The notes under the pieces: generated by a model
What the model saw: only the letters and a program-made list of their open reading frames with translations
Told to the model about the DNA's origin: nothing
Database searches by the model: none
Part shown: one piece after another, positions 1 to 57,255 of the stretch
Layout: each line of letters begins with the position of its first letter
How positions within the stretch are numbered: the stretch's first letter is position 1
Made by a program: the position numbers and the translations under genes
From: Planctomycetota bacterium
GTDB lineage: Bacteria; Planctomycetota; UBA1135
Assembly: GCA_045047305.1 (NCBI GenBank)
Contig: JASFYO010000029.1
Span: forward strand, 1-64,000
DNA: 64,000 nucleotides
Direction of reading: 5' to 3'

Positions 1-1167
1 GATGGCAGCGCTGCGCAACAGTCCGCGCGAGAAATAGGGGAGTCGGCTTTACAAGCTGGCAGCGTTGCCATCCTCACCGTGGCTGGGGGCCAAGCTTCAA
101 GACTTGGCTTCGAAGGGCCCAAAGGGGCCTTTCCTTTAGGTGCCCTGAGCGGTGCCAGCCTATTTCAAATCCTTGCCGGTCAAATCCGTCGCTTGCGAGA
201 GGTTTATCGATGCAAGCTTGCGTGGGTGATTCAAACAGGCCCGGGGAACCACGCAGAAACGAAATCGTTCTTTGAGAAACGGAATCATTTTGGTCTTGGC
301 GCCTCCACCATCCGTTTTGTTTGCCAAGGAACCTTGCCAGCACTCACCCCCAAGGGGCAGTTGCTACTTGCGGCTCCAGATCGGCTATTCCGCAATCCTG
401 ATGGGCACGGTGGGGTTTACCGGGCCCTGAAAAATTCAGGCGCCATTGGTTCTTTGCGTGCAGCAGGAGTGAGCACACTCTTTTATTGCCAAATCGACAA
501 TCCACTGGCCTGGATTGGTGACCCCGTGTTTCTTGGCTATCATCTTCAACAGGGCGCCAGAATGTCGGCTAAAGTTGTAGAGAAAACCGAACCTGCGGAA
601 AAAGTGGGCTTAGTCGTGGCCGATGGTGAACGAAATACCTGTGTAGAATATTCTGATCTACCTGATGAAATTCAAGCTGAACGCGCTGCCGATGGCGGAC
701 TCAAGTTTCGTGCAGGCAACATTGCCATCCATATTTTTGAACTTGATTTTATGGAAGAAATGGCAGAGGCAAACTTGCCATTGCACCTCGCGCGTAAAGA
801 AATTCGTTGCCTTTCCGCAGATGGCGTCACCTCTGAATTACGCGAAGGTGTCAAATTCGAAACCTTTGTTTTCGATGCTCTCCCATTAGCTCGCAAATCC
901 GTAATTCAACTCGCGCTGCGTGAAGAAGAATTTGCCCCGGTTAAAAATAGATCCGGCGTAGATTCGATTCAAACTTCTAAACAAGCCTTAAGTGCACGTT
1001 CAAAAAGCTGGATCCAAACTGCCTTGATTCCGGGAGGCTCTGCCAAAGCAAATGATTTCCTCGAATTGGAAAGTGGACTGTGCTTAGGTCCAGAAGACCT
1101 TACAACAAGACGAAAACATCTTGTCTGGTCCTGCAAGCAACAACTTCTGCGCTTTAAACCAAATTAA
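1..1167 (+). CDS. UDP-N-acetylglucosamine pyrophosphorylase, UDPGP/UAP1 family (5' end outside window)
   Basis: Frame is open from base 1. Motifs VAGGQASRLG..PKG, PDGHGG, IDNPL, VEYSDL, AGNIAIH, KFETFVFD and EFAPVKN are typical of UAP1-type enzymes. Confidence 0.9.
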   Translation, partial: DGSAAQQSAREIGESALQAGSVAILTVAGGQASRLGFEGPKGAFPLGALSGASLFQILAGQIRRLREVYRCKLAWVIQTGPGNHAETKSFFEKRNHFGLGASTIRFVCQGTLPALTPKGQLLLAAPDRLFRNPDGHGGVYRALKNSGAIGSLRAAGVSTLFYCQIDNPLAWIGDPVFLGYHLQQGARMSAKVVEKTEPAEKVGLVVADGERNTCVEYSDLPDEIQAERAADGGLKFRAGNIAIHIFELDFMEEMAEANLPLHLARKEIRCLSADGVTSELREGVKFETFVFDALPLARKSVIQLALREEEFAPVKNRSGVDSIQTSKQALSARSKSWIQTALIPGGSAKANDFLELESGLCLGPEDLTTRRKHLVWSCKQQLLRFKPN

Positions 1168-1191
1168 CCGCGAAGAACCTACGCTTGACGG

Positions 1192-1220
1192 TTGACCTGA
1201 AGGCCAAGCCTTGAGAACAT
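1192..1220 (+). promoter_or_regulatory. Possible sigma70-type promoter for the tRNA
   Basis: TTGACC (1192-1197), 17-nt spacer, GAACAT (1215-1220), ending 13 nt before the tRNA. Confidence 0.35.
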
Positions 1221-1233
1221 ATCCGCCTTCGTT

Positions 1234-1320
1234 GCCGAAGTGGCGGAATTGGCAGACGCGATGGATTCAAAATCCATTTCTCGCAAGGGAGTGGGGGTTC
1301 AAGTCCCCCCTTCGGCACCA
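1234..1320 (+). tRNA. tRNA-Leu(CAA)
   Basis: Acceptor stem GCCGAAG/CTTCGGC plus ACCA; D-arm GGCGGAATTGGCAGACGC; anticodon arm ATGGA-TTCAAAA-TCCAT; long variable arm; T-loop GGTTCAAGTCC; 87 nt. Confidence 0.97.
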
Positions 1321-1385
1321 TTTAAACAGGCTTGAATTGCCTCCCCTTAAACGGGTATGTTTCTAGTGTGACCCCTACCAGGCCT

Positions 1386-1952
1386 ATGTCCCAGTCATTC
1401 GATCCACTGTTAAGCGATCTAGTTGACCGCTGCTTTAGCATTACCCTGCACCGTCTCCGAGGAGTTCGGGGCCTCATTAGTGGCTGGATTGAAATTGGTA
1501 TTCCGCAAGGAGAACAACACCGATTACGAGAACGCATGGAAGAGGACCTTGCATTGCTTGCGCGTCTGGATTGGCTACGCGCTGTCCTCCATCATTCTCC
1601 TCCTATCCAACGTTGCTATGGGGGAGAGGCACCTGCCGTCCTCCTGGCAACCGCCCTAGGCGTAGGGACTCCAGAAGAAGCAGGTGACCGACTCCCCGAT
1701 ATTGCATCACCCGAGGCGGCAGTAGCCTTAGCACTCTGGCTGCAGGGCACTACGGTTGCCTATGATTCAGCTTCCATCCGTCTGGAATGGTTTGGAGATC
1801 AACTTGAGGTGCGTCTAGCAGTCACTCAAGACCAAGATTGGGGATTGTGGAAAAACACATATGGCCACCTCCTGGTAGAAATGGAAGCACATCGCTTACG
1901 CTTCCGCCCAAGTTGCTTTGCACGCTGGAAAGACCAAAGCTTTCAAGCTTAA
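1386..1952 (+). CDS. Hypothetical protein, possibly a degenerate histidine-kinase/phosphotransferase fold
   Basis: ORF from ATG 1386. TLHRLRGVRGLISGWIEIG loosely resembles an H-box helix; no G-boxes are visible. Confidence 0.55.
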   Translation: MSQSFDPLLSDLVDRCFSITLHRLRGVRGLISGWIEIGIPQGEQHRLRERMEEDLALLARLDWLRAVLHHSPPIQRCYGGEAPAVLLATALGVGTPEEAGDRLPDIASPEAAVALALWLQGTTVAYDSASIRLEWFGDQLEVRLAVTQDQDWGLWKNTYGHLLVEMEAHRLRFRPSCFARWKDQSFQA

Positions 1953-2002
1953 ACCCCAAGCCCGGTATCGACCAATGCCAACCAATCACGTAAAATGCGG
2001 GG

Positions 2003-3586
2003 TTGAAGGCCATGTCTGTAGAGCACGAACAAGAAGACTTCCTAGCCCTGTTTCATGAACTTGAAGCACGCTGCAAAGCAGACCCAATCCTAGAACAGGA
2101 ATGGGGGAAAGCACAATCCAATTTTCTCGGCAGTCAAGGTTTGAACACTCATGCCATGCACCGCTTTCGGGAGTGGTTTTTATTAGAAAAAGTGTCCCCC
2201 AAATTGGGGGCCCCTCCAGCAGTAATTTGGGCACCCGAAAGCCCAGAAGTCAATTCCATATGGCACCGTTTACTAGACTCCTTCTATGGGATTTTCCAAG
2301 GCATCGGTAGCGACGATGAAGGCTATCCCTTATTGGAAGACTTATGGAGTGGGCGTCAAATTCGTTTGATTAGAAAACAAATGAATATGGATGAAGCTGG
2401 GGTCCTGGTGGGGCGGGTAGCTGTGGGCGGAGAGGACCACCACGTCCCCTTTACCGGAGCCGCTTTCCTTATTGCCCCGGGGCTGGCAGATGCGCTCGCC
2501 AAAGACCTATCCAGCATTCGGGCGAAACAACCGAGATCCAGACTTTCACAAGAACAATGTGAAAATTTATTATTACCCTATCGCTTACTTGAAGAAGCAG
2601 AACCAGTAGCCTCGAAGGATTACCAAGAGCAACTTTCTGTTTTGCTTGAAGGGCAAAGCAAATGGACGATGAGCCAAGTATTGCACCTGATTCAGACTCA
2701 AGGGGCGCAAGAAACCTTGAACCAAATTGCCTTTGATTCCGAATTGGATTTAGAGGGGTTACGGCATTGCCTTCACGGATTAACATCTACCCCAACGGCA
2801 ACAACGAAACCGAAGCGCAACCTAGGTGATGACGAATTGGATCAGGCCGCCGTCCAAAATGCATTGTTAGCTTTTGAAAAAGACCAACACGCGGGGAAAG
2901 ATGTGGAAGAATCCTTTGCGCTGCTGGAACAGCAATTGGGCCTGAAACCAGGGACTAGTGACCCATACGACGAAATCAAACATGCTGAGCAGGCCACAAA
3001 TGAAACCGTTGGACCTGCAGAAGCGCCAGGAAGCGCTATGTGGATGGCCACCTTTTTGTGGGAACAGGAACAACTAGGGAATCATCCTAGCCGAGAAACC
3101 CTGGAACAGATAAGCGGATTCTTGGAGTTCTTACGCAATATTTTTGGCCGCAACTTGGAGGCTGATGAAATCCATCAACATCAAATATTGGCCTTCTTTT
3201 GTCAGGCAGAATCGAGCAAAATCTTAGACACCCAACTCAAGCAACTTGAGGGTTTCTTGCTGTGGCTTGCCCAAGAACAAGGTGCCGAAATCCAGCTAAA
3301 TAAGGAATCGAAAAGCCTGATCCAACGGGTGGTTCGCGTCAACCAAGGATGGGCTTCGAGCCCATCTGAGATTGGAAGCATGGCGTTGGTGCAAAAATCA
3401 AAGCCTCTCTTAGTCAGTGCTGACGACGCAGACCAGGCTGAAGTGCTTGGGTGGCCGAGCGATTTGGATTTCCAACCCCAAGTTGGAGACGCATTACGCG
3501 GGCAATGGCGGCAGGGCAAATTTCATGTTGCTGCTTGGTTTCCAAAAGCCTTGATGCCAAATACAGCAATCACCTCGTCGGATTAA
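2003..3586 (+). CDS. Hypothetical protein with putative OB-like segments and an integrase core-binding (SAM-like) domain
   Basis: 527-aa ORF (TTG 2003 or ATG 2012). Segment SRETLEQISGFLEFLR..EIHQHQILAFF..LKQLEGFLLWLAQEQG resembles the XerC/D N-terminal domain. Confidence 0.7.
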   Translation: MKAMSVEHEQEDFLALFHELEARCKADPILEQEWGKAQSNFLGSQGLNTHAMHRFREWFLLEKVSPKLGAPPAVIWAPESPEVNSIWHRLLDSFYGIFQGIGSDDEGYPLLEDLWSGRQIRLIRKQMNMDEAGVLVGRVAVGGEDHHVPFTGAAFLIAPGLADALAKDLSSIRAKQPRSRLSQEQCENLLLPYRLLEEAEPVASKDYQEQLSVLLEGQSKWTMSQVLHLIQTQGAQETLNQIAFDSELDLEGLRHCLHGLTSTPTATTKPKRNLGDDELDQAAVQNALLAFEKDQHAGKDVEESFALLEQQLGLKPGTSDPYDEIKHAEQATNETVGPAEAPGSAMWMATFLWEQEQLGNHPSRETLEQISGFLEFLRNIFGRNLEADEIHQHQILAFFCQAESSKILDTQLKQLEGFLLWLAQEQGAEIQLNKESKSLIQRVVRVNQGWASSPSEIGSMALVQKSKPLLVSADDADQAEVLGWPSDLDFQPQVGDALRGQWRQGKFHVAAWFPKALMPNTAITSSD

Positions 3587-3640
3587 CCGACTAGCGGGGG
3601 TTAAGGAGCCTCATTCGTGGTGTACTTGTCGCCCTGCATA

Positions 3641-3668
3641 ACGTCCGATAATATATATTATGTTGCGA
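3641..3668 (+). other. dif: dif-type XerC/XerD chromosome dimer resolution site
   Basis: ACGTCCGATAA-TATATA-TTATGTTGCGA has the 11-6-11 architecture and closely matches E. coli dif GGTGCGCATAA-TGTATA-TTATGTTAAAT; it is intergenic. Confidence 0.85.
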
Positions 3669-3722
3669 AAGACTCAGGGCGGGGCGCGTGGAATGCTTGG
3701 TTTCCCTCGTATTTACCCCATT

Positions 3723-3766
3723 TGTGGAAAGTTCTGTGGATAACCCTGTGGATAACCTTGGGATAA
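3723..3766 (-). promoter_or_regulatory. Tandem DnaA-box array
   Basis: Perfect TGTGGATAA (TTATCCACA on minus) at 3735-3743 and 3747-3755; TGTGGAAAG at 3723-3731; TTGGGATAA at 3758-3766. All share one orientation with an 11-12 bp period. Confidence 0.8.
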
Positions 3767-3791
3767 ACGATCCCTGATCACCCGGAAGGAA

Positions 3792-4394
3792 TTAGGAAAT
3801 ACGCCCCGCGAAGATCACCTTCGCATCCCCGTTGCACCCATACTCCACCAGACTCACTGACCCAGTGTCAATTCGCAGCTCATTCCATGCGGGTAAATCC
3901 AAACCCATTGCATCGGCCAATATCGCCCGCGTGGGAAACATGTGAGATATCAAAGCGACCTCGGCATCCGAATCCTGCTCTCTAAGAATCGTGTCGCGAG
4001 CCATCAAGACCCGATCCCTCAGATCACCTAAGGATTCACCGCCATGGGCGCGCCAATCCCAGGGATCCTGGCGATGAAATTGAAGGTCACCCGGAAACTG
4101 AACGTCGACCTCATTTGCGGTCAAGCCAATCCATCGGCCCCGTGAAATCTCCTTTAATCCATCCAGTGTCCGCACCTGCATGCCTGGCCGGCTGGCCACG
4201 ACACATTGAGCTCCATATTGAGCACGCCCCAAAGGACTTGCGTAGACCGCTGCGAATGTAATAGGTTCAACCTGAAACGCGGCTTTTTGGGCTTCCAAAC
4301 GTCCCTGAGTACTTAACGCTACCTCAGTTCCTCCATAAAAGGAACCGGGTTTTGCCACACTCACCGCCCCATGACGAATCAAAAACAGACGCAT
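3792..4394 (-). CDS. Histidine phosphatase family protein (CobC/GpmB-like)
   Basis: LFLIRHG, SPLGRA, LKEISRGRW, GGES and ISH motifs. Confidence 0.9.
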   Translation of the reverse strand: MRLFLIRHGAVSVAKPGSFYGGTEVALSTQGRLEAQKAAFQVEPITFAAVYASPLGRAQYGAQCVVASRPGMQVRTLDGLKEISRGRWIGLTANEVDVQFPGDLQFHRQDPWDWRAHGGESLGDLRDRVLMARDTILREQDSDAEVALISHMFPTRAILADAMGLDLPAWNELRIDTGSVSLVEYGCNGDAKVIFAGRIS

Positions 4395-4535
4395 TGCTCT
4401 TTAATATAGTTGGAACCCAGAAAAATTCAACTAAAAGTGTTCCCGGAAAGGAACCATAAGGCTTTTTCAAGGCGGTTTAAGGTTGGTACAATCTTTGCAT
4501 TAGTGGCATTGCCTCTGAACCCGAGGAAATTAAAC

Positions 4536-6554
4536 ATGAAACGCTGGTACCTGATTTTCGCTCTCGCGGCTGGATTCCTTTTCAGCTCCGCGGACCTTTC
4601 CGCACACGGTGGCACCTATAAAGGCCCCGGGGATACTGTACCCCCTGGTGGCGGTGGTGCCTCGCCTCCTGCCGCTCCTAGTTCCCCGAGTTCGCCTAGC
4701 TCCCCGAGTTCGCCAAGCTCTCCGAGCTCGCCATCCACTCCAGCGACTCCAGCCACCCCAGGCTCCCCTGGTGGGCCAGCGACTCCCGGTGCAGGCCCAA
4801 CCACCGGTGGCGGTGGCTCGGCAGGCCCTGATCTCAGTACTTGGGTTTTCTGGTGGGAGTTCAATAAAGATCGTTTCCTTAACCTCAAGGCAAAGGTCCA
4901 CGGCGCCGCCACGGTTACCGACGGCGCTGGCCCTCTCGCTGGCCTTGGTGCTGGTGCACAAGTAGCAAATACTTTGGCCCCCACCACGCCGCAGATTCAA
5001 AACATCATTGTTCCTGCCCTTTTCGATCTCATCGAGAAAGAAGATGACCGCGATATTGCAACCGCGACCATGATTTCGTTGGCCAAGATTGGCTTCCGCG
5101 CAGAAGATGCACGTAAGGTGTTTGAAAAACACCTCGATTCTCCTGTCCAAGAAGTTTCTGAAACCGCTGCGTTGGCTTACGGCATCATGAAGGACGAAGG
5201 TGCAATCCCCGCCCTTGAGTTGCTTTTACGCGACACCAAGGAAGGGCAAGACATGATTGGCGGCAAAGAGGTTAATCTTCGTACTCGCACCTTCTCTGCT
5301 TATGGCCTAGCCATGATTGCGCGCGAATCGACCAGCGAAGAAGTGAAGCAAAACGTTGCCGATACTTTATTCGATGTACTCGTCACCGATGACTCCTCCA
5401 TCAAGGACATCCGTGTAGCCTGCGTGATTGGGCTTGGCGTACTTGAGCTTCCTGAGCCTACTGAAATGGTGCGTAAACTAAGCGCGATTCTCGATGAGCG
5501 GAAAATGGATCAACTGGTTCTTGCTCACATCCCAAACGCTATGGCAAAAATGCTTCGCAGCCTACCTGCTGGCGATGCAACCCGCGATGCAACGATTGAT
5601 CAGCTCATCAAGATTCTCAAAAACAAGCCAAAGCGCAAAACCTTAGTGCGCCAATCGGCCATTCAAGCGGTAGGCATGCTCGCGGTTGCCGGCGACCCAC
5701 GCAACGAGGATATTTTCGACATTCTTGTGCATCAGCAGAAGAAAGGTAGGGATCAGCAGATTAAGCATTACACTGCAATCTCCATGGCCTACTTAGGTGT
5801 TGCCGACAAAGGCAAAACTCGGGACGATGTCACCAAGTACTTGATTGACCACATGAAGAAATCAAGTACGCCATATGAGCCTTGGTGTGGTTTAGCGCTA
5901 GGCGTTATGGCCTTTATGCTAAATGAAAATGGCGAAGCCATCAGCCCACTGGTCATGGATGCAACTTTGACCAAGTTCAAGAAGACTCGTTCACCTGACC
6001 CCAAAGGCGCTTACGCAATCGCTCTTGGACTGATGAAGAACGAAGCTGCTAAGACTGACTTACGCGTCGCACTTGAGGATTTCCGTGAATCTCAATTCCG
6101 TGGCTACACGGCCATCGCTTTGGGCCTTCTGAATGCACGGGAATACATGGGTTATGTTGGTGAAGTCGTGGATGAATCCAAGCGTGACCCTGACTTGCTC
6201 AAGCAGGCCAGTATTGGACTGGGGCTTATGAAAGACAGAAACGCAGTCGGTAAACTTCTCGCGTACCTCACTCCCGAGGATGGTAAGAAGCCACGCTTGG
6301 CGGTACTTTCTGCAGTTGCAACCGCCTTGGGTTTCATTGGCGACAAGAGTTCGGTTCAACCTCTCGTTGACACCATGGCCAACGAACGCTTGACTGCTCT
6401 TGGCCGAGCCTTTGCTTCAGTCTCTCTCGGTATGGTTGCAGACCAAGGCATTTTCCCTTGGAACTCCATCTTCGGCGAAGATTTGAACTACCGAGCTTCG
6501 GTATCGACCCTCATCGACCAACAGACTGGAACCGGCATCCTGGATATTCTGTAG
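4536..6554 (+). CDS. Secreted HEAT-repeat protein with Pro/Ser/Gly-rich N-terminal linker
   Basis: GAGG RBS before ATG 4536; signal peptide ending LSA|HGG; (PSS)n linker; repeated helical AALAYG/AIALGL HEAT-like units. Confidence 0.85.
   Translation: MKRWYLIFALAAGFLFSSADLSAHGGTYKGPGDTVPPGGGGASPPAAPSSPSSPSSPSSPSSPSSPSTPATPATPGSPGGPATPGAGPTTGGGGSAGPDLSTWVFWWEFNKDRFLNLKAKVHGAATVTDGAGPLAGLGAGAQVANTLAPTTPQIQNIIVPALFDLIEKEDDRDIATATMISLAKIGFRAEDARKVFEKHLDSPVQEVSETAALAYGIMKDEGAIPALELLLRDTKEGQDMIGGKEVNLRTRTFSAYGLAMIARESTSEEVKQNVADTLFDVLVTDDSSIKDIRVACVIGLGVLELPEPTEMVRKLSAILDERKMDQLVLAHIPNAMAKMLRSLPAGDATRDATIDQLIKILKNKPKRKTLVRQSAIQAVGMLAVAGDPRNEDIFDILVHQQKKGRDQQIKHYTAISMAYLGVADKGKTRDDVTKYLIDHMKKSSTPYEPWCGLALGVMAFMLNENGEAISPLVMDATLTKFKKTRSPDPKGAYAIALGLMKNEAAKTDLRVALEDFRESQFRGYTAIALGLLNAREYMGYVGEVVDESKRDPDLLKQASIGLGLMKDRNAVGKLLAYLTPEDGKKPRLAVLSAVATALGFIGDKSSVQPLVDTMANERLTALGRAFASVSLGMVADQGIFPWNSIFGEDLNYRASVSTLIDQQTGTGILDIL
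4678..4760 (+). repeat. Degenerate 9-bp coding repeat encoding (PSS)n(PAT)n
   Basis: Protein reads PSSPSSPSSPSSPSSPSSPSTPATPATP with synonymous codon variation. Confidence 0.8.
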
Positions 6555-6641: not shown

Positions 6642-7421
6642 CTAGTTTCCGTCGTCAAACTGAAACTCAGCCAAGATTTCGTTGAATTCAATCACAACCA
6701 TTTGCCCATTCTCATCCTTGGCAATGATTTGGTTGGCGTCATCCTCAACCTTTTTAATCCGGCAGGGACCGCGACGGGGAGAAATAATAGCGTCACCTGG
6801 ATTGAGCCAGAGCAAGTCGGCTTGCTGGATTTCTAAACCATGATCATTCAAATCAGCGGGGTGAATCTCCCCCACTAAGCCAAACAGGTCGCCGGGATCT
6901 TGTTCCCAGCGCCTACCCTCGGTCGCTAACACGCGCTGCCCAGGCATCACCACGTCGACCTCGGGCGTTGGCTCGGGCGTTGGCTCGGGCGTTGGCTCGG
7001 GCGTTGGCTCGGGCGTTGGCGCGGGCGTTGGCGCGGGCGTTGGCGCGCCAATCTCGACCTCCTGCAAAAGACTCTTTCCTTCAAGCAGGCGCATTAAGCT
7101 GTCGCCATATTCCCGCAGCGAATGTTCCTGAGAAAGATCCACTTGAAGCTCCAAGCGGCCCCTTCCAGGCTTACCTATTTCACGCAAAAACGCGCGCTCA
7201 GGCTGCGGCAACCCATCCCACCAAATTTCCTTTAGGAATCCTATGCCAAGTTGTTGCCCGTGTTCCCACTGCAATATGGCCGGGGAACCCCCCTCAGAGA
7301 GCATTTGTTGCAGCAAACTGTGCAAGCCTCCCGCAGGTATTTCGCGGGACCATTCTCCTCCACCCATGCGATACAAAAGAACCAAATCAGACTTTTGTTT
7401 GCGGCGCAGGAATGCGCTCAT
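6642..7421 (-). CDS. Hypothetical protein with (PTPA/PTPE) linker
   Basis: ATG at 7421 overlaps the stop of the upstream gene; two regions are separated by a Pro-rich repeat. Confidence 0.7.
   Translation of the reverse strand: MSAFLRRKQKSDLVLLYRMGGGEWSREIPAGGLHSLLQQMLSEGGSPAILQWEHGQQLGIGFLKEIWWDGLPQPERAFLREIGKPGRGRLELQVDLSQEHSLREYGDSLMRLLEGKSLLQEVEIGAPTPAPTPAPTPEPTPEPTPEPTPEPTPEVDVVMPGQRVLATEGRRWEQDPGDLFGLVGEIHPADLNDHGLEIQQADLLWLNPGDAIISPRRGPCRIKKVEDDANQIIAKDENGQMVVIEFNEILAEFQFDDGN
6960..7047. repeat. 12-bp tandem repeat (VNTR-like)
   Basis: 5x CTCGGGCGTTGG then 2x CGCGGGCGTTGG plus a partial unit; encodes PTPA/PTPE on the minus strand. Confidence 0.95.
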
Positions 7422-7933
7422 GGTAGAAGACGGTCTAGGCTTGCAGCTAGTAACAAGACCAACCCGGCTGCAAGCAAAGGGAGCCAACGAGTGGAAGCGC
7501 TACGGTCATGCACGAATTGCCGGCGAGTTTCTGCATCGCCCAAAAAAGTTTTTACCGACGCCACAAAATCCGTCTCCACTTGAGGCCGATTGTCGTAGCG
7601 ACTCAACCAAAGAACCGCGCGATCATGCCCAGCCCGGAAATTGGACGGGTTCCAACAATCTGCTTGCATCGCAAAACGAAGGGCATCTGGATTCTGCTCA
7701 GTTAGATTGTCGATTTCCTCGCGCAACTCCCCTTCGGCACCAGCACGAAGATAGAAAAAGGACCGTTTCAAAGTTGAGGACTCCGTAGCTCGCAAGGCCC
7801 TTGATTGGGTAAGCCACTGTTGATGGGCTTCGAGGAATCCCTTGGCATCATGCGCAGCCGCAATGTTTTGTGCTTGAACACCCGCTCCAAAAAAGAACCA
7901 GGCTACGCTAGATAAAAGGAGCAAACGAAACAT
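7418..7933 (-). CDS. Hypothetical exported protein with C-terminal membrane anchor
   Basis: Signal peptide MFRLLLLSSVAWFFFGAGVQA; C-terminal hydrophobic helix; coupled to the upstream gene by TAATG. Confidence 0.7.
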   Translation of the reverse strand: MFRLLLLSSVAWFFFGAGVQAQNIAAAHDAKGFLEAHQQWLTQSRALRATESSTLKRSFFYLRAGAEGELREEIDNLTEQNPDALRFAMQADCWNPSNFRAGHDRAVLWLSRYDNRPQVETDFVASVKTFLGDAETRRQFVHDRSASTRWLPLLAAGLVLLLAASLDRLLP

Positions 7934-23491: not shown

Positions 23492-24094
23492 TTAAGCAAA
23501 GGCACCAACGAGATCCTGCATTTGCGCGGCACTTTTTGCTGCGCGTAAAACCGCAACTCCGTGTGCGCCGACTTGGATACAGGCTTCCGCCTGGGCTTGA
23601 TGGCTAATCCCACCGATGGCAATCACAGGAACCTGATGACTGCAAGCCAATCTCAACTGTTCGATCCCGCGAGGCTCGAGAATGCCATTTTTTTTCGGCG
23701 TGGACCATATGGGGCCGAAGATGAGAAAGTCTGCTCCTTGATGAAGGGCTAACTCAATTTCTTGTTGCGTGTGGGTGGACGCTCCGAGCAATAGGCCAGG
23801 AAATTTTGCGCGATAAACTGAAATAGGCAAGCTTCGGAAACCTGCAATCACAGCATGAGCCCCGGCCGCCAAAGCGAGATCAGCATGTCCGTGGACGGCA
23901 ACGAAGGATGCATTTTGCACCAAAGATTTTGCCGAATACAATGCGATTTTCGCTCCACCACTTGGCCGACGTAAAGTCACTGCAGCAGACAAAGCGGCAG
24001 TCTGCAAAAAGGATTGCGTTTCAGCAACACCTGCGAGTTCCGAGCCTATAGCCCACACCCCACGTGGGATCTGCTCCATGGGCCCAGTCATCAA
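23492..24094 (-). CDS. thiE: Thiamine-phosphate synthase (ThiE/TenI family)
   Basis: GASTH, GADFLIFGPIWSTPKK, PVIAIGGI and GAHGVAV; the N-terminal half is divergent. Confidence 0.75.
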   Translation of the reverse strand: MMTGPMEQIPRGVWAIGSELAGVAETQSFLQTAALSAAVTLRRPSGGAKIALYSAKSLVQNASFVAVHGHADLALAAGAHAVIAGFRSLPISVYRAKFPGLLLGASTHTQQEIELALHQGADFLIFGPIWSTPKKNGILEPRGIEQLRLACSHQVPVIAIGGISHQAQAEACIQVGAHGVAVLRAAKSAAQMQDLVGAFA

Positions 24095-26085
24095 GCCACG
24101 CGTAAACTAGCGCCGTAGTCTCGAACCCAAGAGGAGAGGGAATCCACCTCAACTTCGCCATGAAGTTGCACCGTGCTGTCGTCCAAACGGTCAAAGCCTA
24201 TGCCGCGAAGCTCTGGATGCAAGGTTAAGCGGTCAAGCACTTCCTTATGTTCACAAAACAAACGCCCATCGTCAGTAAAAGTTACCAGCCCTCCTTTTCG
24301 CGCCCAGGACTCCAAGGAATAACTTACATTTTGAGGCATTGGAGTCCGACTGTTGTCCTTGAGCAAAGCAAAGATTTCGTCGAGTTTCATGCCTTCGGAG
24401 AGGGCACGGTGCAAACTCGCTGGCGTCACACGGTAGTGGTATAGCGAATCCGTGAACTCACGTTCGCAGAAACGATCGAGGTGATACACCAAATCGTGGC
24501 AGCGGCTGTCTGGAAACAGGACGATTTCAAAGTCCGGATTCACCACCACATGACCACTACCTTCAATTTCGCGGCCAGGGATGACATCGAGCAATTCTCC
24601 ACCGACGCGAGTGAGACGAATCGCGACGGCGCGTCCAGAGGAGTCATAAGCCATATCGATGATGCCAAGTAAGTAGAGGTACTTACGCATCCAGACAAAT
24701 AGGTTCCACGACAGGCTCTGCATGTCTGCGGAAGAGCGCACCGGAAAAGAAGACTTTTCTTGCTCGACCAGTTCCGTGCAGGTTAATGCAGCTAGGTGGT
24801 GATTGCGTGCGATGAATGGCAGGAACATGGCATCGTGCCAGACTCCAGGCTCCAAGCGTTTAATGTAGCGCAGGGTGGTACGACGCAAACGTAACTGATG
24901 ACTAAGATCTCCTGGAAGCTCACGGTCCTCCACAAACCAATCCAGCATCAATCGTTGCTTCTCCAACAAAGTCATACTGAGGAATTTCTGCGCCTCGGGA
25001 GTGAGACGAAAACTGCGCGCTCCAGTGCGGTCAATGAATTGACATGCCAATGCGAATCTATATTCCAGTTCAAGAATCTCAAAGCGACGGAATTCGCGGC
25101 CGGGATTCGGCAATAACTGTTCAGCAATACGCTTACCCGTGCTTTTGAAGATTGTGCCGCGGGTCGTGAAGCGAACGGTATCGCCTTCTACGAACGAGGC
25201 AAAACGCGAGAAGTTGGAAACAAAATCAACTCCAAAGGAAGCGATGGAATCAGGCTTAGGCTCCCCGGTTAAGGAAATATTCTTGAGAATCGCGACCACT
25301 ACTTCTTGGAACAAGCAGAGTACACGCCCGTTTTGACGAATCCCTGAGCCTTCTAGATTCAAGCTCAAACGAGTACCTAATGAGTTCTTCTCCAGAGCTT
25401 TCACCACGACATCAATCTTGGTGTCGCTGCCAAGATCATCATAATCACCTACCGGGAGCAATCCGCCCCAGCGCATGGCAAGGGATTCCACAAGAATACG
25501 CACAGACTCATCCAGGTTTTTGAGTCGCGATAACACAGCATCTTCACTGGCCAACAGCGTATACATTTTACGCACAGCTTCACCGCCAGTAGCAGCTGGC
25601 ATCTTGGTGCGGTAAAACTCAGTCAGCCAGCCGCGCAATGAAATGGGACTACTCGTCACCATTTCCTGAGCCCCGTGCTCTGGCAATACAGCCGCCAGTT
25701 CCTCTGGGATTCCCCAAAGGTGTTTACTTGATCCATTGCTTCCATGAGAAACTTGCGCCACCAATCCCGTCGAAACTAAATCAGAAAGCGCCGGGCGCAC
25801 ACTGCGCTCTGCAACGCCTTCCTTGATTGCGATGGAGCGAAGGTAATCGAAATCGTGGCCGTCTCCAGCGTCTACGCTCAAGACCCGGAAGACCGGCGCT
25901 AAGGCCCCATAAAGGCCGAAGCAAAGATTGCTCACCGAAACAGGATCGACCATGCGGTCACGCAACACTTGGACTATAACGGCACGTCGTGCAGGAGGTG
26001 TGCCCCCAATCCAACGGTCGTGCAAATCGATCAACTCGCTTTCCGAACGGGAAGCAAGAGTGCGAGCGAGAGAGATGCGAACCAT
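24091..26085 (-). CDS. XPB-associated protein with C-terminal helicase-associated domain
   Basis: C-terminal VVNPDFEIV..LDRFCE..YRVTPASLHRAL..MPQNVSYSLESW mirrors the XPB N-terminal domain; lies directly downstream of XPB. Confidence 0.8.
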   Translation of the reverse strand: MVRISLARTLASRSESELIDLHDRWIGGTPPARRAVIVQVLRDRMVDPVSVSNLCFGLYGALAPVFRVLSVDAGDGHDFDYLRSIAIKEGVAERSVRPALSDLVSTGLVAQVSHGSNGSSKHLWGIPEELAAVLPEHGAQEMVTSSPISLRGWLTEFYRTKMPAATGGEAVRKMYTLLASEDAVLSRLKNLDESVRILVESLAMRWGGLLPVGDYDDLGSDTKIDVVVKALEKNSLGTRLSLNLEGSGIRQNGRVLCLFQEVVVAILKNISLTGEPKPDSIASFGVDFVSNFSRFASFVEGDTVRFTTRGTIFKSTGKRIAEQLLPNPGREFRRFEILELEYRFALACQFIDRTGARSFRLTPEAQKFLSMTLLEKQRLMLDWFVEDRELPGDLSHQLRLRRTTLRYIKRLEPGVWHDAMFLPFIARNHHLAALTCTELVEQEKSSFPVRSSADMQSLSWNLFVWMRKYLYLLGIIDMAYDSSGRAVAIRLTRVGGELLDVIPGREIEGSGHVVVNPDFEIVLFPDSRCHDLVYHLDRFCEREFTDSLYHYRVTPASLHRALSEGMKLDEIFALLKDNSRTPMPQNVSYSLESWARKGGLVTFTDDGRLFCEHKEVLDRLTLHPELRGIGFDRLDDSTVQLHGEVEVDSLSSWVRDYGASLRVA

Positions 26086-26087
26086 TT

Positions 26088-27788
26088 TTAGAGTTTGGAA
26101 GGCAGAAGGCTCTGCGCAGGGAGGATTTGATAGGTGTAGCCTTGTTCGGTCAAGAAACGCTGACGCTTCTCGGCAAAATCCTGATCCGAAGTCCCCTCAC
26201 TCACCAAGGTGTAAAAACTTGCACCGCGACCATCCTTCTTGGGACGTAAAATACGCCCTAAACGCTGTGCCTCTTCCTGTCGTGAACCATAGGTGCCAGA
26301 AATTTGAAGCAACACGTTTGCATCTGGTAAATCAATCGCAAAGTTACCCACTTTGGAGACCAGCAACACCTTTTCCGTTCCGTCGCGGAAGGCTTGATAA
26401 AGCTTGTCACGTTCTGGGTTCGGCATTTTCCCGGTGATTAGTGGCACGCCAAGTTCCTTCTCCAAAGCGTGCAACTGATCCAAGTATTGACCAATAATCA
26501 GAATGCGATCGCCATCATGCTTTTGCAGCAATGTGAGTAAAGCATCCGTTTTGCATGGGTTCTCGGAGGACAAGCGAAAACGAGCGCGCTTTCCGGAGGC
26601 CAAGTATTCCAAGCGTAGTTCCTCGCTTAATGGCACGCGCACTTCGATGCATTCCACCTTTGCAATATAGCCCCGACGCTCTAAATCTTTCCACGGAGCG
26701 TCGTAACGCTTGGGACCGATCATGCAGAATACTTCGTCTTCCTTGCCGTCTTCGCGGACTAAGGTAGCGGTCAAGCCCAGGCGTCGTCGCGCTTGGATTT
26801 CCGCAGTAGCACGAAAAACGGGTGCAGGCAAAAGGTGGACCTCATCGTAAATAATGAGTCCCCAATCTCCGCGCGAGAATAAATCAAAGTGGACGAAATC
26901 CTCACCTTTGTTCTTGCGATAAGTCAGGATTTGATAAGTGGTCAAAGTAACCGGTTTGATTTCTTTAACTTCTCCAGAATACTCACCGATTTGATCTTCC
27001 GTGAGCTCGGTTTTGTCCAACAGTTCGCGGCGCCATTGGCGCAAGGCAACAGTGTTCGGGGTCACCACCAAAGTATGCGCGCCAACCGCTTGCATAGCAG
27101 CTATCCCAACAATGGTTTTCCCTGCGCCACAAGGCAATACCACCACGCCACTCCCGCCATCAGCACGGCCATCATGATGAAAACTGGAGACGGCTTCATT
27201 TTGATACGGGCGCAAAACAAAGGGGTCACCATTCTCCATTACGCCGCGCATTTTAATTTCTAAGGGCGTGCCAGCGACGTAACCAGCCAAATCTTGTACT
27301 GGATATCCGAGCTTCATCAACCGCTCTTTGACTAAACCACGACGCGCCTTGGTCACCCAAGCCAAACCAGCCTCAGCGTCGAAGGAATCAAAATGGCAGA
27401 CCAGATCAGGGTCGTGAACGAGCTCGCCTAGAACTTTGGCCTCCGACGCTTTCAAGCAGAGTAAATCACCGCGCTTTTCATCCGCATGCAGGGTAAATAC
27501 TTCCGCTCGATGAAACCAAGTGGTGACTTCGACCTGAAAGTTTTGCGGGATTCCATAACGTGCGTTCTCTCCGAGAAAACCTAGTATGCTTTCGGCGTTC
27601 AAGCCTACTGCTGCCGCATTCCACACTGAAACCGGAGTAATCCGGTAGGTGTGCAAATACTCTGGCGACTTCACCAATTCAGCAAAGGGAAGCAAGCCAT
27701 TACGCATCGCGATAAAGTCCGGATGTGCCGTCTCCACCACGATAGTCATATCGCTTTGAAGAATTAGGGGGTGGTCGCCGAGGCTCAA
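26088..27788 (-). CDS. xpb: DNA repair helicase XPB (Ssl2/ERCC3-like)
   Basis: PLILQSD, ELVKSPEYLHTYRITP, LPCGAGKT, DEVH, GLTATLVREDG and QEEAQRLGRILRP. Confidence 0.95.
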   Translation of the reverse strand: MSLGDHPLILQSDMTIVVETAHPDFIAMRNGLLPFAELVKSPEYLHTYRITPVSVWNAAAVGLNAESILGFLGENARYGIPQNFQVEVTTWFHRAEVFTLHADEKRGDLLCLKASEAKVLGELVHDPDLVCHFDSFDAEAGLAWVTKARRGLVKERLMKLGYPVQDLAGYVAGTPLEIKMRGVMENGDPFVLRPYQNEAVSSFHHDGRADGGSGVVVLPCGAGKTIVGIAAMQAVGAHTLVVTPNTVALRQWRRELLDKTELTEDQIGEYSGEVKEIKPVTLTTYQILTYRKNKGEDFVHFDLFSRGDWGLIIYDEVHLLPAPVFRATAEIQARRRLGLTATLVREDGKEDEVFCMIGPKRYDAPWKDLERRGYIAKVECIEVRVPLSEELRLEYLASGKRARFRLSSENPCKTDALLTLLQKHDGDRILIIGQYLDQLHALEKELGVPLITGKMPNPERDKLYQAFRDGTEKVLLVSKVGNFAIDLPDANVLLQISGTYGSRQEEAQRLGRILRPKKDGRGASFYTLVSEGTSDQDFAEKRQRFLTEQGYTYQILPAQSLLPSKL

Positions 27789-40359: not shown

Positions 40360-40668
40360 TTGAACATAAAATCAAGATCTTCCCGCCGCCAACTCGCGTT
40401 TTGGGCTGGCATTACATTAACCTTTTTATCCGCGCAGTTACTCGCACAAGAAACCACTGGAGGTGACCATCACTTCGATGACTCCCAAGTCGGTGTATTC
40501 CGTGGGGAGAGTTTTAGGCTTGCGGTAGCATCGCTAGGCGATATCAATATCGATGGAATCCTAGATATCGCAGCCGGTCCTATAGATGACGATGGCATTT
40601 CTGATTTCGCGGTTGGTTCCTTGCCTATGCGTGAGAGCGTTCAGGCGATTCTCGACGTTCAGCCTTAA
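40360..40668 (+). pseudogene. Truncated FG-GAP repeat protein
   Basis: Signal peptide followed by only two abutting FG-GAP fragments (SLGDINIDGILDIAAG, DDDGISDFAVG); too short to form a propeller. Confidence 0.6.
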
Positions 40669-42479
40669 TTCGATTGGGCTTCGCTTTTTTCGAAGCGCGC
40701 CAAGGCAATTTCAAGCAAGGCGACATCCGCAGGAGTCACTCCGGCTAATCGTCCTGCACTTCCCAGAGTTTCCGGTCGCACTTCCTCCAAGGTTAGACGC
40801 GCTTCATTGCGTAATCCCTTGATGTTATCTAATGCAAAATTGGAAGGGATTAAAGTTCCTTCGCGTGATGCAGCACGTGCCACCCAAGCAGCCTGACGTT
40901 TTACATAGCCTTCATATTGCACATCTGCTTCAAGAGTTTCCCAATCGCGATTGCTTAGTCCAAAACGCGCACTTTCGGGTGCAACTTCCAACACCTTTTG
41001 CCAGCCACCGTGTTTCGGTTGACGCAAAAGCGCCAGGTGTTCTCCCAATTCCGCCAGCGCTAGATCGAGCCTTGCTTTACGCGCAGCATAACGCTCAAAA
41101 CGATGCCTCGAACAGCCGCCAAACTCCTGTGCAACCGGAGTGAGGCGAATGTCGGCGTTGTCATGACGCAGCAACAATCGATGCTCCGCACGCGATGTGA
41201 ACATGCGGTAAGGTTCGGTGGGATCGCTCACCACCAAGTCATCAATAAGCACTCCGATATAGGCTTGATGTCGACCGAGCACAATCGAGTCACGCCCCAA
41301 GATTTTGAGCGCGGCATTCCATCCTGCCATCAATCCTTGTGCCGCTGCTTCCTCGTAACCAGAAGTGCCACAGATCTGGCCGGCGAGGTACAGGCCATCC
41401 CAGTCACGCAATTCCAAGGTACGGTGCAGGCAACGCGGGGCAACATGGGTGTACTCCACCGCATATCCCGCCTGCACAATCACCGCGTTTTCCATGCCAA
41501 TACAGGTGCGCACAAACTCCTCTTGTACCTCGATAGGCAAAGAAGTGGAAATGCCGTTGGCGTAGAGCAAATCGGAATCGACGCCTTCCGGCTCCAAAAA
41601 CACATTATGCGCATCGCGGTCAGCAAAGCGCACCACCTTGTCCTCCAACGACGGACAATAACGCGGACCGACACCATCAATGCGTCCGGCATACATGGGA
41701 GCCAGATGCAAATTTTCCCGCACGATGTCTTGCGTACGTTTCGTGGTGGTGGTTTGCCAACAAGAGATTTGCTCGTTATCAATGCGATCGTGAAGGAAAC
41801 TAAATGGAACCGGATCAGCATCGCCTTTCTGTTCCGTCATCACCGAGTAGTCCACCGAATCAGCAGCAAGACGTGGCGGGGTTCCAGTCTTTAAACGCGC
41901 CGTGGGTAATCCCAATTTGCGTAATGCTTGACCAAGACCAGCAGCACCGGCTTCGCCAAAACGCCCGCCTTCGGTCTTCACCAAACCAGTATGGAGCAAT
42001 CCCTCTAAGAAAGTACCGGTGGTCAAGATGACTGCTTTGGCTGCAAATTCGCGGCCATCGGCCATGCGGATGCCACGGATTTGCTTCTCATTCCAGAGTA
42101 AATCTACGGCCTCGCCCTCGATGACATGAAGTCCTTCCTGTGCCGCCACCATTTCCTGGGCGATACGCTCATAGCCCTCGCGATCACATTGCGCCCGTGG
42201 CGACTGCACTGCGCGTCCTTTCGATGTATTCAACATGCGAAATTGAATACCAGCACGGTCGGTGATGATGCCCATCCAGCCGCCAAGAGCATCAATCTCA
42301 CGCGTGAGTTGGCCCTTGCCAATCCCTCCAATCGCTGGGTTGCACGACATCCGCCCCAAAGCCTTGGCTTGGAGAGAAACGAGGCCGACCTGAAGGCCCA
42401 GGCGTGCCACCACCGCTGCCGCTTCTAAGCCAGCATGGCCACCGCCAATCACCAAAACATCGTGGGAATCTATCATCAT
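40665..42479 (-). CDS. mnmG: tRNA uridine-5-carboxymethylaminomethyl modification enzyme
   Basis: GGGHAG, MSCNPAIGG, LKTGTPPR, GPRYCPS, AGQICGTSGYEEAAAQG and EPYRMFTSRAE. Confidence 0.97.
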   Translation of the reverse strand: MMIDSHDVLVIGGGHAGLEAAAVVARLGLQVGLVSLQAKALGRMSCNPAIGGIGKGQLTREIDALGGWMGIITDRAGIQFRMLNTSKGRAVQSPRAQCDREGYERIAQEMVAAQEGLHVIEGEAVDLLWNEKQIRGIRMADGREFAAKAVILTTGTFLEGLLHTGLVKTEGGRFGEAGAAGLGQALRKLGLPTARLKTGTPPRLAADSVDYSVMTEQKGDADPVPFSFLHDRIDNEQISCWQTTTTKRTQDIVRENLHLAPMYAGRIDGVGPRYCPSLEDKVVRFADRDAHNVFLEPEGVDSDLLYANGISTSLPIEVQEEFVRTCIGMENAVIVQAGYAVEYTHVAPRCLHRTLELRDWDGLYLAGQICGTSGYEEAAAQGLMAGWNAALKILGRDSIVLGRHQAYIGVLIDDLVVSDPTEPYRMFTSRAEHRLLLRHDNADIRLTPVAQEFGGCSRHRFERYAARKARLDLALAELGEHLALLRQPKHGGWQKVLEVAPESARFGLSNRDWETLEADVQYEGYVKRQAAWVARAASREGTLIPSNFALDNIKGLRNEARLTLEEVRPETLGSAGRLAGVTPADVALLEIALARFEKSEAQSN

Positions 42480-42529
42480 TTCCAAGCGCAGGACGCAACC
42501 TGCCGAGCTTTGTATTCTAAAGCACTCTG

Positions 42530-56106: not shown

Positions 56107-56589
56107 TTAATTCGTTCCGCCCAGCGCAGGGATGGTGCGGCAAAAATCGAGGAACAAATCTTCGTCGGCAGCATTTTCTTCCAAAGTGCCGACCATGAGC
56201 ATAGGTGCTGCGCGCCCAAGGCTCGCAAGCATTTGCCGATTGAGTTTGAGATTGGCAACCAGAGCCGGGTGTCCATCTTCGCCACCAACAATCAAACTGG
56301 CGCCGGCATCGGCAATCCGATGTACGGCGGAAGCGAGCTCACCGAGGGAGCACTCCTCCTGCAGCGGAAGTTTCGAAATCCGCGAGCGAAGAGCAGAAAG
56401 GAAGGCTGTGTTACGTACTTCAGGCACCAAAACTAAGCTGATCACTGGACGCGCGAGCCATGTCTCCATAAGAGCTTCCGCCGCCTGCGCGACCGGAGCT
56501 TCGGCGGCGAGGCAGAACACCTTTTCCCCAGAAGCTTGCAAGGGGGATTCCTGCACAGCCTGGTCGGAAGTAAGGTTAAGGGTATTCAT
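56107..56589 (-). CDS. Hypothetical protein
   Basis: 160-aa ORF filling the gap upstream of lat on the same strand; no motif recognised. Confidence 0.5.
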   Translation of the reverse strand: MNTLNLTSDQAVQESPLQASGEKVFCLAAEAPVAQAAEALMETWLARPVISLVLVPEVRNTAFLSALRSRISKLPLQEECSLGELASAVHRIADAGASLIVGGEDGHPALVANLKLNRQMLASLGRAAPMLMVGTLEENAADEDLFLDFCRTIPALGGTN

Positions 56590-57022
56590 GTCAGAGGAGA
56601 CCTCTCAAGCAGCGCAGTCAGGAAGGTGGGATGCCGAAGAAGCATCGTCTGCTCGCCTGAGTTTGCCACGTATCAGCAGCCTAAGAAAGAAGCGTGACTA
56701 CGCGAGAGTCTACGCCGAGGGCAAACGCGCCCGGGGACGGCTCATTCTAGTCGTTGCGGCTCCAGGATTGAACCCCCTGTCTGCGCGTATGGGACTTTCC
56801 GTGGGGCGCAAATTCAATCCCTCGGCGGTGGTGCGCAATCGAGCACGCCGAGTTTTACGTGATGCATTCCGTCTGCAGCGACGCCAATTGCCCCACCTGG
56901 ACCTCATTCTCATCCCTACAGCTCGTGGCGCGGAGTACAAAACCAATGAGGTTGAGGCCGAGTTACGTCGCCTGAGTAAAAAAATTGCCCGCTGGTTCGA
57001 AGAGGACCAGGCCAAAACTTAG
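56588..57022 (+). CDS. rnpA: Ribonuclease P protein component (start uncertain)
   Basis: LRKKRDYARVY, RMGLSVGRK and AVVRNRARRVLRD (RNR motif). Confidence 0.9.
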   Translation: MSEETSQAAQSGRWDAEEASSARLSLPRISSLRKKRDYARVYAEGKRARGRLILVVAAPGLNPLSARMGLSVGRKFNPSAVVRNRARRVLRDAFRLQRRQLPHLDLILIPTARGAEYKTNEVEAELRRLSKKIARWFEEDQAKT

Positions 57023-57024
57023 AC

Positions 57025-57255
57025 ATGCGCTACCTCTTTATGGGGCTTATTAAAGCCTATCGCTTCCTTTTGAGTCCGCTTCTGGGCGCCGACAAGTGCA
57101 GGTTTACTCCAAGCTGTTCAGAATACGGACTAGAAGCTCTGCAAATACATGGAAGCATCAAGGGCCTCGGCCTTACAATCTGGAGAATTCTCCGCTGCCA
57201 GCCCCTCTGTCGCGGCGGATTTGACCCGGTTCCCCTTCGAAAACCGAAGCCATGA
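57025..57255 (+). CDS. yidD: Membrane protein insertion efficiency factor
   Basis: CRFTPSCSEY..HG..RILRCQP..GGFDPVP. Confidence 0.95.
   Translation: MRYLFMGLIKAYRFLLSPLLGADKCRFTPSCSEYGLEALQIHGSIKGLGLTIWRILRCQPLCRGGFDPVPLRKPKP

Follow-up and report, generated by a model that had tools for sequence, protein, structure and literature searches.

A chromosomal dif site in the DNA of the uncultured planctomycete analysed here is accompanied, on its XerD side, by an array of four same-direction DnaA boxes, and across the family to which the genome belongs this array keeps its side, its orientation and its helical phase relative to dif. The stretch that we analysed (the window) comprises 64,000 nucleotides, positions 1 to 64,000 of contig C29 of genome G000, an assembly of 2.83 Mb on 91 contigs that is 87.7% complete. 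We read the pairing, at somewhat better than even confidence, as a site for a DnaA oligomer that would be spatially coupled to XerCD/dif and would link resolution of the terminus to control of the initiator. Dif and double DnaA boxes are each known, and their phased pairing on a chromosome is new as far as the open literature shows: we found no description there of DnaA boxes beside a chromosomal dif, although subscription papers or supplements could hold one.

A four-box DnaA array beside dif

The dif site, its spacer and the array form a 130-bp module between two converging genes. The features of the window on which the text draws are as follows.

2003..3586, + strand: gene for a 527-aa, DUF7986-like protein without a Pfam hit; its end lies 54 bp ahead of dif
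2101..2108, + strand: last KOPS-like polar octamer toward dif on the left side (octamer counts)
3641..3668, + strand: dif, a 28-bp 11-6-11 pseudo-palindrome (sequence, single copy, octamer convergence), with XerC arm 3641-3651, 6-bp centre 3652-3657 and XerD arm 3658-3668
3669..3722, no strand: 54-bp spacer between dif and boxes, free in sequence and stepped in length across the family
3723..3731, - strand: DnaA box 1, weak, two mismatches to TTATCCACA (sequence, family alignment)
3735..3743, - strand: DnaA box 2, perfect TTATCCACA (sequence)
3747..3755, - strand: DnaA box 3, perfect TTATCCACA (sequence)
3758..3766, - strand: DnaA box 4, weak, two mismatches, conserved as a degenerate box (sequence, family alignment)
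3792..4394, - strand: histidine phosphatase gene, converging on the array, its stop 25 bp from box 4
4978..4985, - strand: first KOPS-like polar octamer toward dif on the right side (octamer counts)
40665-42485: mnmG (Pfam)
56132-57022: ORF containing rnpA (Pfam)
57025-57255: yidD-like 76-aa ORF (named by eye)

The four boxes share one orientation, with start-to-start distances of 12, 12 and 11 bp and spacers of 3, 3 and 2 bp, which makes them direct repeats at the spacing of cooperative DnaA double boxes, and the 3' end of TTATCCACA points toward dif. The sequence thus agrees with the preliminary description, which had reported four same-orientation boxes, two of them perfect, 11-12 bp apart and 54 bp from dif. 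Within the window the double-box pattern has two matches against a shuffle mean of 0.01, and a search for other box clusters revealed that the dif array is the sole 12-bp box pair with at most one mismatch in the whole assembly, the oriC boxes lying on contig C16. At the locus, a search for a small RNA gave no Rfam match at E values up to 1, folding z values were 0.06 and -0.57, and no promoter- or terminator-like site was found at the array. A check for misassembly found one contig of run X1, perhaps the source sample or a close strain, that spans 641-5808, and relatives share the gene order.

The 28-bp site is dif and marks the terminus

The 28-mer at 3641-3668 is the chromosomal dif and marks the terminus. 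Comparison across relatives revealed that it matches the conserved dif of its own lineage, with a core of ATAA-N6-TTATG; the names of its arms, XerC and XerD, were assigned by likeness to what we take to be the E. coli site. The site had been called near-canonical, which holds for its 11-6-11 architecture and is generous for its sequence, as the XerD arm differs from the presumed E. coli arm at 4 of 11 positions. Across the order, the dif pattern was found in 123 of 301 genomes, exactly once in 119 of these 123, where a reversed control pattern gave zero matches; in the window's own genome the match is single. In one other genome (L111, G128:C1:246025) the dif match lies at 246 kb of an 8.07-Mb contig. 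The distance from dif to dnaA amounts to 55.8% of the chromosome in G151 and 50.4% in G097 (both near-complete, same order), and together with two Acidobacteriota these make four complete or near-complete chromosomes in which dif sits opposite dnaA. The genome also encodes xerC, xerD and ftsK, as two tyrosine recombinases plus FtsK (E 1e-60), with best hits to XerC (321.7 bits, cut-off 335) and XerD (273 bits, cut-off 330) just below the equivalog cut-offs.

G-rich polar octamers, chosen on other contigs only and then counted around dif, converge on the site. Reverse-complemented C21 was placed left of C29 by synteny with G011, G042, G006 and G043, and on the joined C21-C29 scaffold (overlapping hits counted once, by start) we counted 37 forward and 3 reverse octamers left of dif and 1 and 22 right of it, with the polarity switch falling between window positions 2101 and 4985. 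Because the C21/C29 overlap is weak, the terminus argument is carried by the relatives with contiguous sequence: taken as a group, these four gave forward/reverse counts of 16/0, 17/2, 27/1 and 5/0 on the left and, in the same order, 0/3, 0/14, 1/6 and 1/11 on the right. The end of C21 and C29:1-332 share one UDPGP gene, overlapping by 333 bp at just 75% identity; GC content is 52.5% in C21 and 54.1% in C29, and the G000 bin may mix two related populations. Genome-wide, the lineage-specific KOPS-like motif is GGTGGGGG (70:1) and RTGGGGGA, not GGGNAGGG (141:69).

On the left of dif the raw GC skew is close to zero, whereas on the right it amounts to about -5% (G000, G011, G042, G043, G006), an asymmetry that arises from gene orientation. 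A polar fork barrier, i.e., a one-way block, was first suggested by this raw skew and was ruled out by third-position skew corrected for gene direction, which switches about 80-90 kb left of dif (noisily) and gives the left side a lagging-like skew as far as about -80 kb, with a standard error of 0.4 in each bin.

A separate, conventional oriC between dnaA and dnaN

The single dnaA of the genome lies on C16, in the order parA-like ... dnaA, dnaN, gyrB, and the gap between dnaA and dnaN, which holds DnaA boxes in both orientations and has the cumulative GC-skew minimum (C16:12110) at its edge, is a conventional oriC, separate from the dif locus. Its architecture recurs in 27 of 27 family members, counted after excluding 4 of 31 dnaA loci (two incomplete, one with a foreign-looking DnaA, one boxless in the scanned interval): after the last box come a GC spacer, a trio-like run that opens with TATA(C/A)T, scored against what we take to be the DnaA-trio consensus, and an AT tract. 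Throughout the family, this oriC (L036:8257-8614, G000 C16:12256-12613) keeps its boxes at rigid positions, and a conserved trio run, CTATA(C/A)T, precedes dnaN. No boxes were seen in the corresponding dnaA-dnaN interval of G151 and G097 (family f10). A 1.7-kb contig (L254, G018:C323) carries a second dnaA of foreign appearance, which probably contaminates the bin.

The preliminary description had raised a combined origin and resolution locus with single-replichore replication, and had listed mnmG and rnpA-yidD in the window as a hint of origin proximity. These genes usually lie near origins and are indeed present here, mnmG and rnpA by Pfam and yidD by eye; as an origin hint they fail, being simply terminus-region genes in this lineage. 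They lie 37-53 kb from dif (40665-42485, 56132-57255); mnmG is about 36 kb from dif in G006 too, and it adjoins dif in the alphaproteobacterial locus L168. A main origin united with dif in one locus could appeal to the boxes adjoining dif and to the unidirectional chromids of Pseudoalteromonas, which carry dif 4-27 kb from ori (PMC7858055). We give it next to no credence: the skew flip (negative to positive) and the diverging polar motifs are at the C16 oriC, whereas the octamers converge at dif, and dif sits opposite dnaA in the four chromosomes named above. Single-replichore replication is refuted along with it.

A dormant back-up origin, at which DnaA with IHF or HU would melt the AT-rich dif core and so finish or restart replication at the terminus, seems very unlikely to us. 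Its attraction is one of geometry, in that the boxes point toward dif as they point toward the unwinding element at the family oriC, and in that the order dif, IHF site, boxes resembles what we take to be the left half of E. coli oriC. Set against this, the spacer is GC-rich, skew and octamers show a plain terminus, there are only two to four boxes, and a trio run is absent: none follows the dif array in the family loci examined, in line with what had been observed for this locus, and the AT fraction after the dif arrays is 0.42 versus 0.59 at oriC.

Conservation and helical phasing within the family

We fetched 39 dif loci of the family in two retrievals (28 + 11), kin loci not being independent in the counts that follow. 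The weak-strong-strong-weak array is kept at 31 of the 39 (14 genera), always on the XerD side and always in one orientation, and leave-one-out profile scores run from 14.8 to 63 on the XerD side and stay below -9 on the XerC side. Conservation of the pairing in relatives, on which the preliminary description had set store, is therefore borne out within the family, and it stops there among its nearest neighbours: in sister families f7, f9 and f10 the array was found in 0 of 59 dif loci (best profile score -12.8). The eight family loci lacking it include one that ends 9 bp after dif, two with decayed remnants and one that is a second site in G030. The array is dispensable: 8 of 39 family loci, counting the one cut short, lack it or keep it in decayed form, and the sister families lack it.

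Spacer length rather than spacer sequence is what the family retains. The lengths fall at 54/55, 65/66, 75-77, 85-89, 96-98 and 108/109 bp, in steps of about 11, and the GC-rich patch that had been pointed out between dif and boxes, while present in the window, belongs to a spacer sequence that is not conserved across the family. Over the 31 loci, phasing reached R 0.88 at period 10.75, and when each genus contributed a single value (n=14) R was 0.86, which 0 of 20000 uniform draws attained when the best of seven periods was taken, for the draws too. At 4 of the 31 loci the array is preceded, at 12 bp, by a clear box in the opposed orientation, which is degenerate or absent elsewhere and in the window, and an IHF-like site is not enriched in the family (at most one mismatch in 4/31 spacers versus 2/31 on the other side).

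Flanking genes and other contents of the window

Both flanking genes converge on the gap, which places the array outside any promoter here. Elsewhere in the family a MaoC frame follows the array in 11 of 31 loci, in one of which it overlaps box 4, and a converging phosphatase or other gene does so in the rest; the array position is unchanged whether the next gene points away or converges. Control of neighbouring transcription by DnaA, as repression of the MaoC or ihfB promoter or as a roadblock to read-through across dif, could build on those 11 loci, on ihfB following the boxes in 4 of 6 alphaproteobacterial loci read, and on DnaA roadblock termination as described in the introduction of PMC11317965. 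We judge it decidedly improbable, given that both window genes converge and no promoter-like site was found, that the array survives loss of MaoC, and that its distance is fixed to dif while the neighbours differ among phyla.

The 527-aa gene adjoins dif across the order, including families without the array; of 40 genomes, 35 had it on the same contig as dif and 28 within 2.5 kb of the site. In a structure model (pLDDT 81.5), residues 341-437 of its protein are predicted to fold like the core-binding domain of XerD and integrases (Z 9.3, rmsd 2.4, 87 aligned against XerD 1a0p), followed by an OB-like fold. Profile comparison with the family's own XerD was weak (E 0.0045, probability 7.7%), Foldseek with the alignment-based model returned no match at E 0.001, and the single-sequence fold had a pLDDT of 38. 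From the model we regard the protein as a candidate non-catalytic, dif-associated DNA-binding protein.

Such a neighbour, or a terminus organiser, might itself bind the boxes through a DnaA-like motif. Two observations lean that way, namely the integrase core-binding-like domain of the 527-aa protein and the spacing of the family's oriC boxes, which is 9-11 or 22 bp and never 12. We nevertheless find binding by another protein improbable, as the dif arrays and the oriC boxes of a given genome share one set of 9-mers (TTNTCCACA variants), a 3-bp spacing is known for DnaA double boxes, unrelated phyla show the motif again, and the 527-aa gene flanks dif in array-less families too.

The window further holds a tRNA-Leu(CAA) at 1234-1320, a HEAT-repeat protein with an SSPSSP repeat tract at 4410-6554 (G011 and G042 have a paralog beside it), a PTPA/PEPT-repeat protein at 6642-7487, and an XPB-like helicase pair (Helicase_C_3 proteins) at 24091-27788, in the terminus region and syntenic in relatives. 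Pfam found one gene only of the HU/IHF family in the genome; motif searches of the genome for FtsZ and HU gave no match, the HU motif being too strict to recover the gene that Pfam found.

Recurrence in other bacterial groups

A GTDB-wide pattern scan, run in one polarity only, listed at least 119 stretches; among the matches listed, most are chance or oriC arrays, this family was recovered under records labelled Planctomycetota, and at least 19 outside Planctomycetota look dif-like by eye. The outside groups described here were chosen because the global pattern hit them and were followed up by the dif pattern alone. In all of them the conserved boxes read TGTGGA away from dif, and, with this family counted in, the array side is XerD in four groups and XerC in one; background 12-bp pairs occurred in 2 of 1050 flank windows.

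The XerC-side group is a small-genome order of Alphaproteobacteria (that of G305), where the dif pattern was found in 67 of 80 genomes. Its first 30 loci have a 12-bp pair in 22 cases and a box in 29, at 54-56, 68 or 77-79 bp from dif, and on each of the 5 long contigs KOPS point toward dif from both sides. An IHF-like 13-mer, defined with at most one mismatch to what we take to be the IHF consensus, is present in 22/29 spacers versus 11/29 on the other side and 2/29 beyond, and is located at 34-36 or 45-46 in 23/29. In the Acidobacteriota order of G301, the pair is on the XerD side in 16 of 22 loci, most loci have a third box about 98 bp on, and in two complete chromosomes dif lies 52% and 53% from dnaA; phasing is weak there (R about 0.5, p 0.02-0.06, offsets 20 to 151). 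A conserved TTTTGCACCGAA word lies beyond the box pair in this order (L388-L408), and moaA is on the other flank of dif. The order of G719 has a box at 71/72 bp in 10 of 30 loci, an offset half a turn off that of the other groups, and a conserved CCC(G/T)ACGATAACT word just before this box (L427-L438) that is kept where the box has decayed. Within the class of G717, a single box at 65-68 bp is found in 15 of 30 loci.

Phylum-wide samples were mostly negative (the G301 phylum, 1/15 loci, this one being the query itself; the G304 phylum, 2/30), so the dif-box module is patchy. In G508, G509, G525, G583, G616 and G661 we saw inverted pairs of dif-like sites, 110 bp to 1.4 kb apart, which resemble pdif modules or Xer-inverted cassettes.

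These group-specific versions bear on whether the boxes are a free-standing DnaA sink or exchange site of the datA, DARS or DnaA-box-cluster (DBC) kind that sits beside dif as the last-copied region and has no coupling to Xer. The preliminary description had offered a terminus titration or checkpoint site as its alternative, and such a site is compatible with all findings. The same-direction boxes plus IHF-like site of the alphaproteobacterial version match datA, the Acidobacteriota version has its own pair, conserved mid motif and third box 98 bp on, and B. subtilis DBCs placed at terC still damp over-initiation, weakly (PMC3245932). Nothing would nonetheless oblige a free-standing site to stay a whole number of helical turns from dif (54-109 bp), datA at terC is reported as ineffective in rich medium (PMC5742627), and the opposed box of the DARS core is clear in just 4 of 31 family arrays. 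Helical phasing to dif suggests something tighter than a free-standing titration site, and we consider the latter unlikely.

A proposed coupling of the DnaA array to XerCD/dif

We interpret the module as a DnaA site coupled to XerCD/dif. A head-to-tail DnaA oligomer would assemble on the boxes, facing the same side of the helix as XerCD-bound dif, and the spacer would bend so that protein patches of DnaA and XerCD could meet; the bending helper may be IHF in the alphaproteobacterial version and HU, or none, in this family. Through this composite, the final step of the chromosome cycle would be tied to the initiator.

Coupling could run in either direction. By analogy with the action of IHF and Fis at datA and DARS2, the dif machinery might switch DnaA: XerCD synapsis or the arrival of FtsK would release, reactivate or hydrolyse the bound DnaA and thereby tie the next initiation to completed segregation, a possibility that we place well short of even. 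By analogy with cer and psi, DnaA might instead serve as an accessory protein that gates or orients Xer recombination, which we hold as a tentative option; the switching of DnaA by dif is weighted slightly above it. That several unrelated lineages carry a termination-to-initiation switch in dif, licensing re-initiation or holding resolution for the initiator's state, is doubtful, if conceivable; XerCD/FtsK action at the dividing septum would there alter DnaA oligomers whole turns away.

None of the 16 regions that DnaA occupies in E. coli lies at dif, judged by the position that we take dif to have. These 16 regions were given by ChIP (PMC11317965, Table 1), and the same source describes the 2-3 bp spacing as what DnaA needs or prefers in vivo in E. 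coli. The spacing-sensitive DnaA/IHF modules datA and DARS2 are described as changing the nucleotide state of DnaA (PMC5742627, PMC6868365), and at plasmid Xer sites adjacent accessory proteins are described as controlling recombination (PMC5357621). Against coupling count this ChIP result, the dispensability of the array, the weak phasing in Acidobacteriota, the half-turn offset in the order of G719, the mixed arm side and the lack of an IHF-like site in the family.

How the end of one chromosome cycle is coupled to the next start is a long-standing open question, and the layout hints that completion of a cycle and the start of another may be linked in a way not described before. If the coupling is real, re-initiation might be licensed by completed chromosome resolution, or resolution might be held for the state of the initiator; with the initiator's preferred array in helical phase with dif, the 130-bp module lends itself to a direct and cheap test. 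The locus is also a caution for origin-finding tools, which may meet a strong cluster of DnaA boxes at a terminus, and the analysis provides the dif, oriC and KOPS-like motifs of a planctomycete lineage in which dif prediction had been unsuccessful.

Comparison with known systems

Chromosomal dif is taught as needing no accessory DNA. The planctomycete site shares with the E. coli-type dif/XerCD/FtsK-KOPS system an 11-6-11 site in single copy, octamer convergence and genes for XerC-like, XerD-like and FtsK proteins, and differs from it in bearing a conserved, phased four-box array, whereas the E. coli-type site is described as needing just a few flanking nucleotides by the XerD arm (PMC2673442). 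The available text on Azospirillum dif sites describes no conserved accessory sequence (bioRxiv 10.64898/2026.09.14.751567), and that of Kono 2011 (PMC3025954) reports that dif prediction failed for its one planctomycete and does not mention DnaA.

The plasmid sites cer (ArgR/PepA) and psi (ArcA/PepA), described as an Xer core with an accessory region of about 100-180 bp (PMC5357621), share with the dif array protein sites that adjoin the Xer core in a fixed phase. They are plasmid-borne and FtsK-independent, have an 8-bp centre at cer and use metabolic regulators as accessory proteins, whereas the dif array is chromosomal and KOPS-flanked and its motif is that of the initiator rather than of ArgR or ArcA.

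Close DnaA boxes outside origins are also known from datA, DARS1, DARS2 and the B. subtilis clusters (PMC5742627), with spacing-sensitive IHF (and Fis) sites described for datA and DARS in the same source, and none of these is described as tied to dif. While datA lies near oriC and has an IHF site between same-direction boxes, the dif array lies at the terminus, with boxes in the same direction and no IHF-like enrichment in the family; in the three-box DARS core, box I runs opposite to boxes II and III, and an opposed box before the array is clear at 4 of 31 family loci and degenerate or absent elsewhere and in the window. In the double DnaA boxes of E. coli (Stringer et al. 2024, PMC11317965), directly repeated boxes are likewise separated by 2 or 3 bp. 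That paper places them at oriC, datA, DARS and promoters, whereas the dif array chains three such spacers and serves no promoter. In a B. subtilis-type oriC the boxes are followed on their 3' side by a short GC spacer, then by a trio run and an AT tract, an arrangement that is absent after the dif arrays. The ori2-dif2 locus of Pseudoalteromonas also has dif close to initiator-binding DNA, described there for a RepA-driven chromid with a distance of 4-27 kb and a one-way skew (PMC7858055); the planctomycete array, in contrast, lies 54 bp from dif, at the terminus of a bidirectionally replicated chromosome with a separate oriC.
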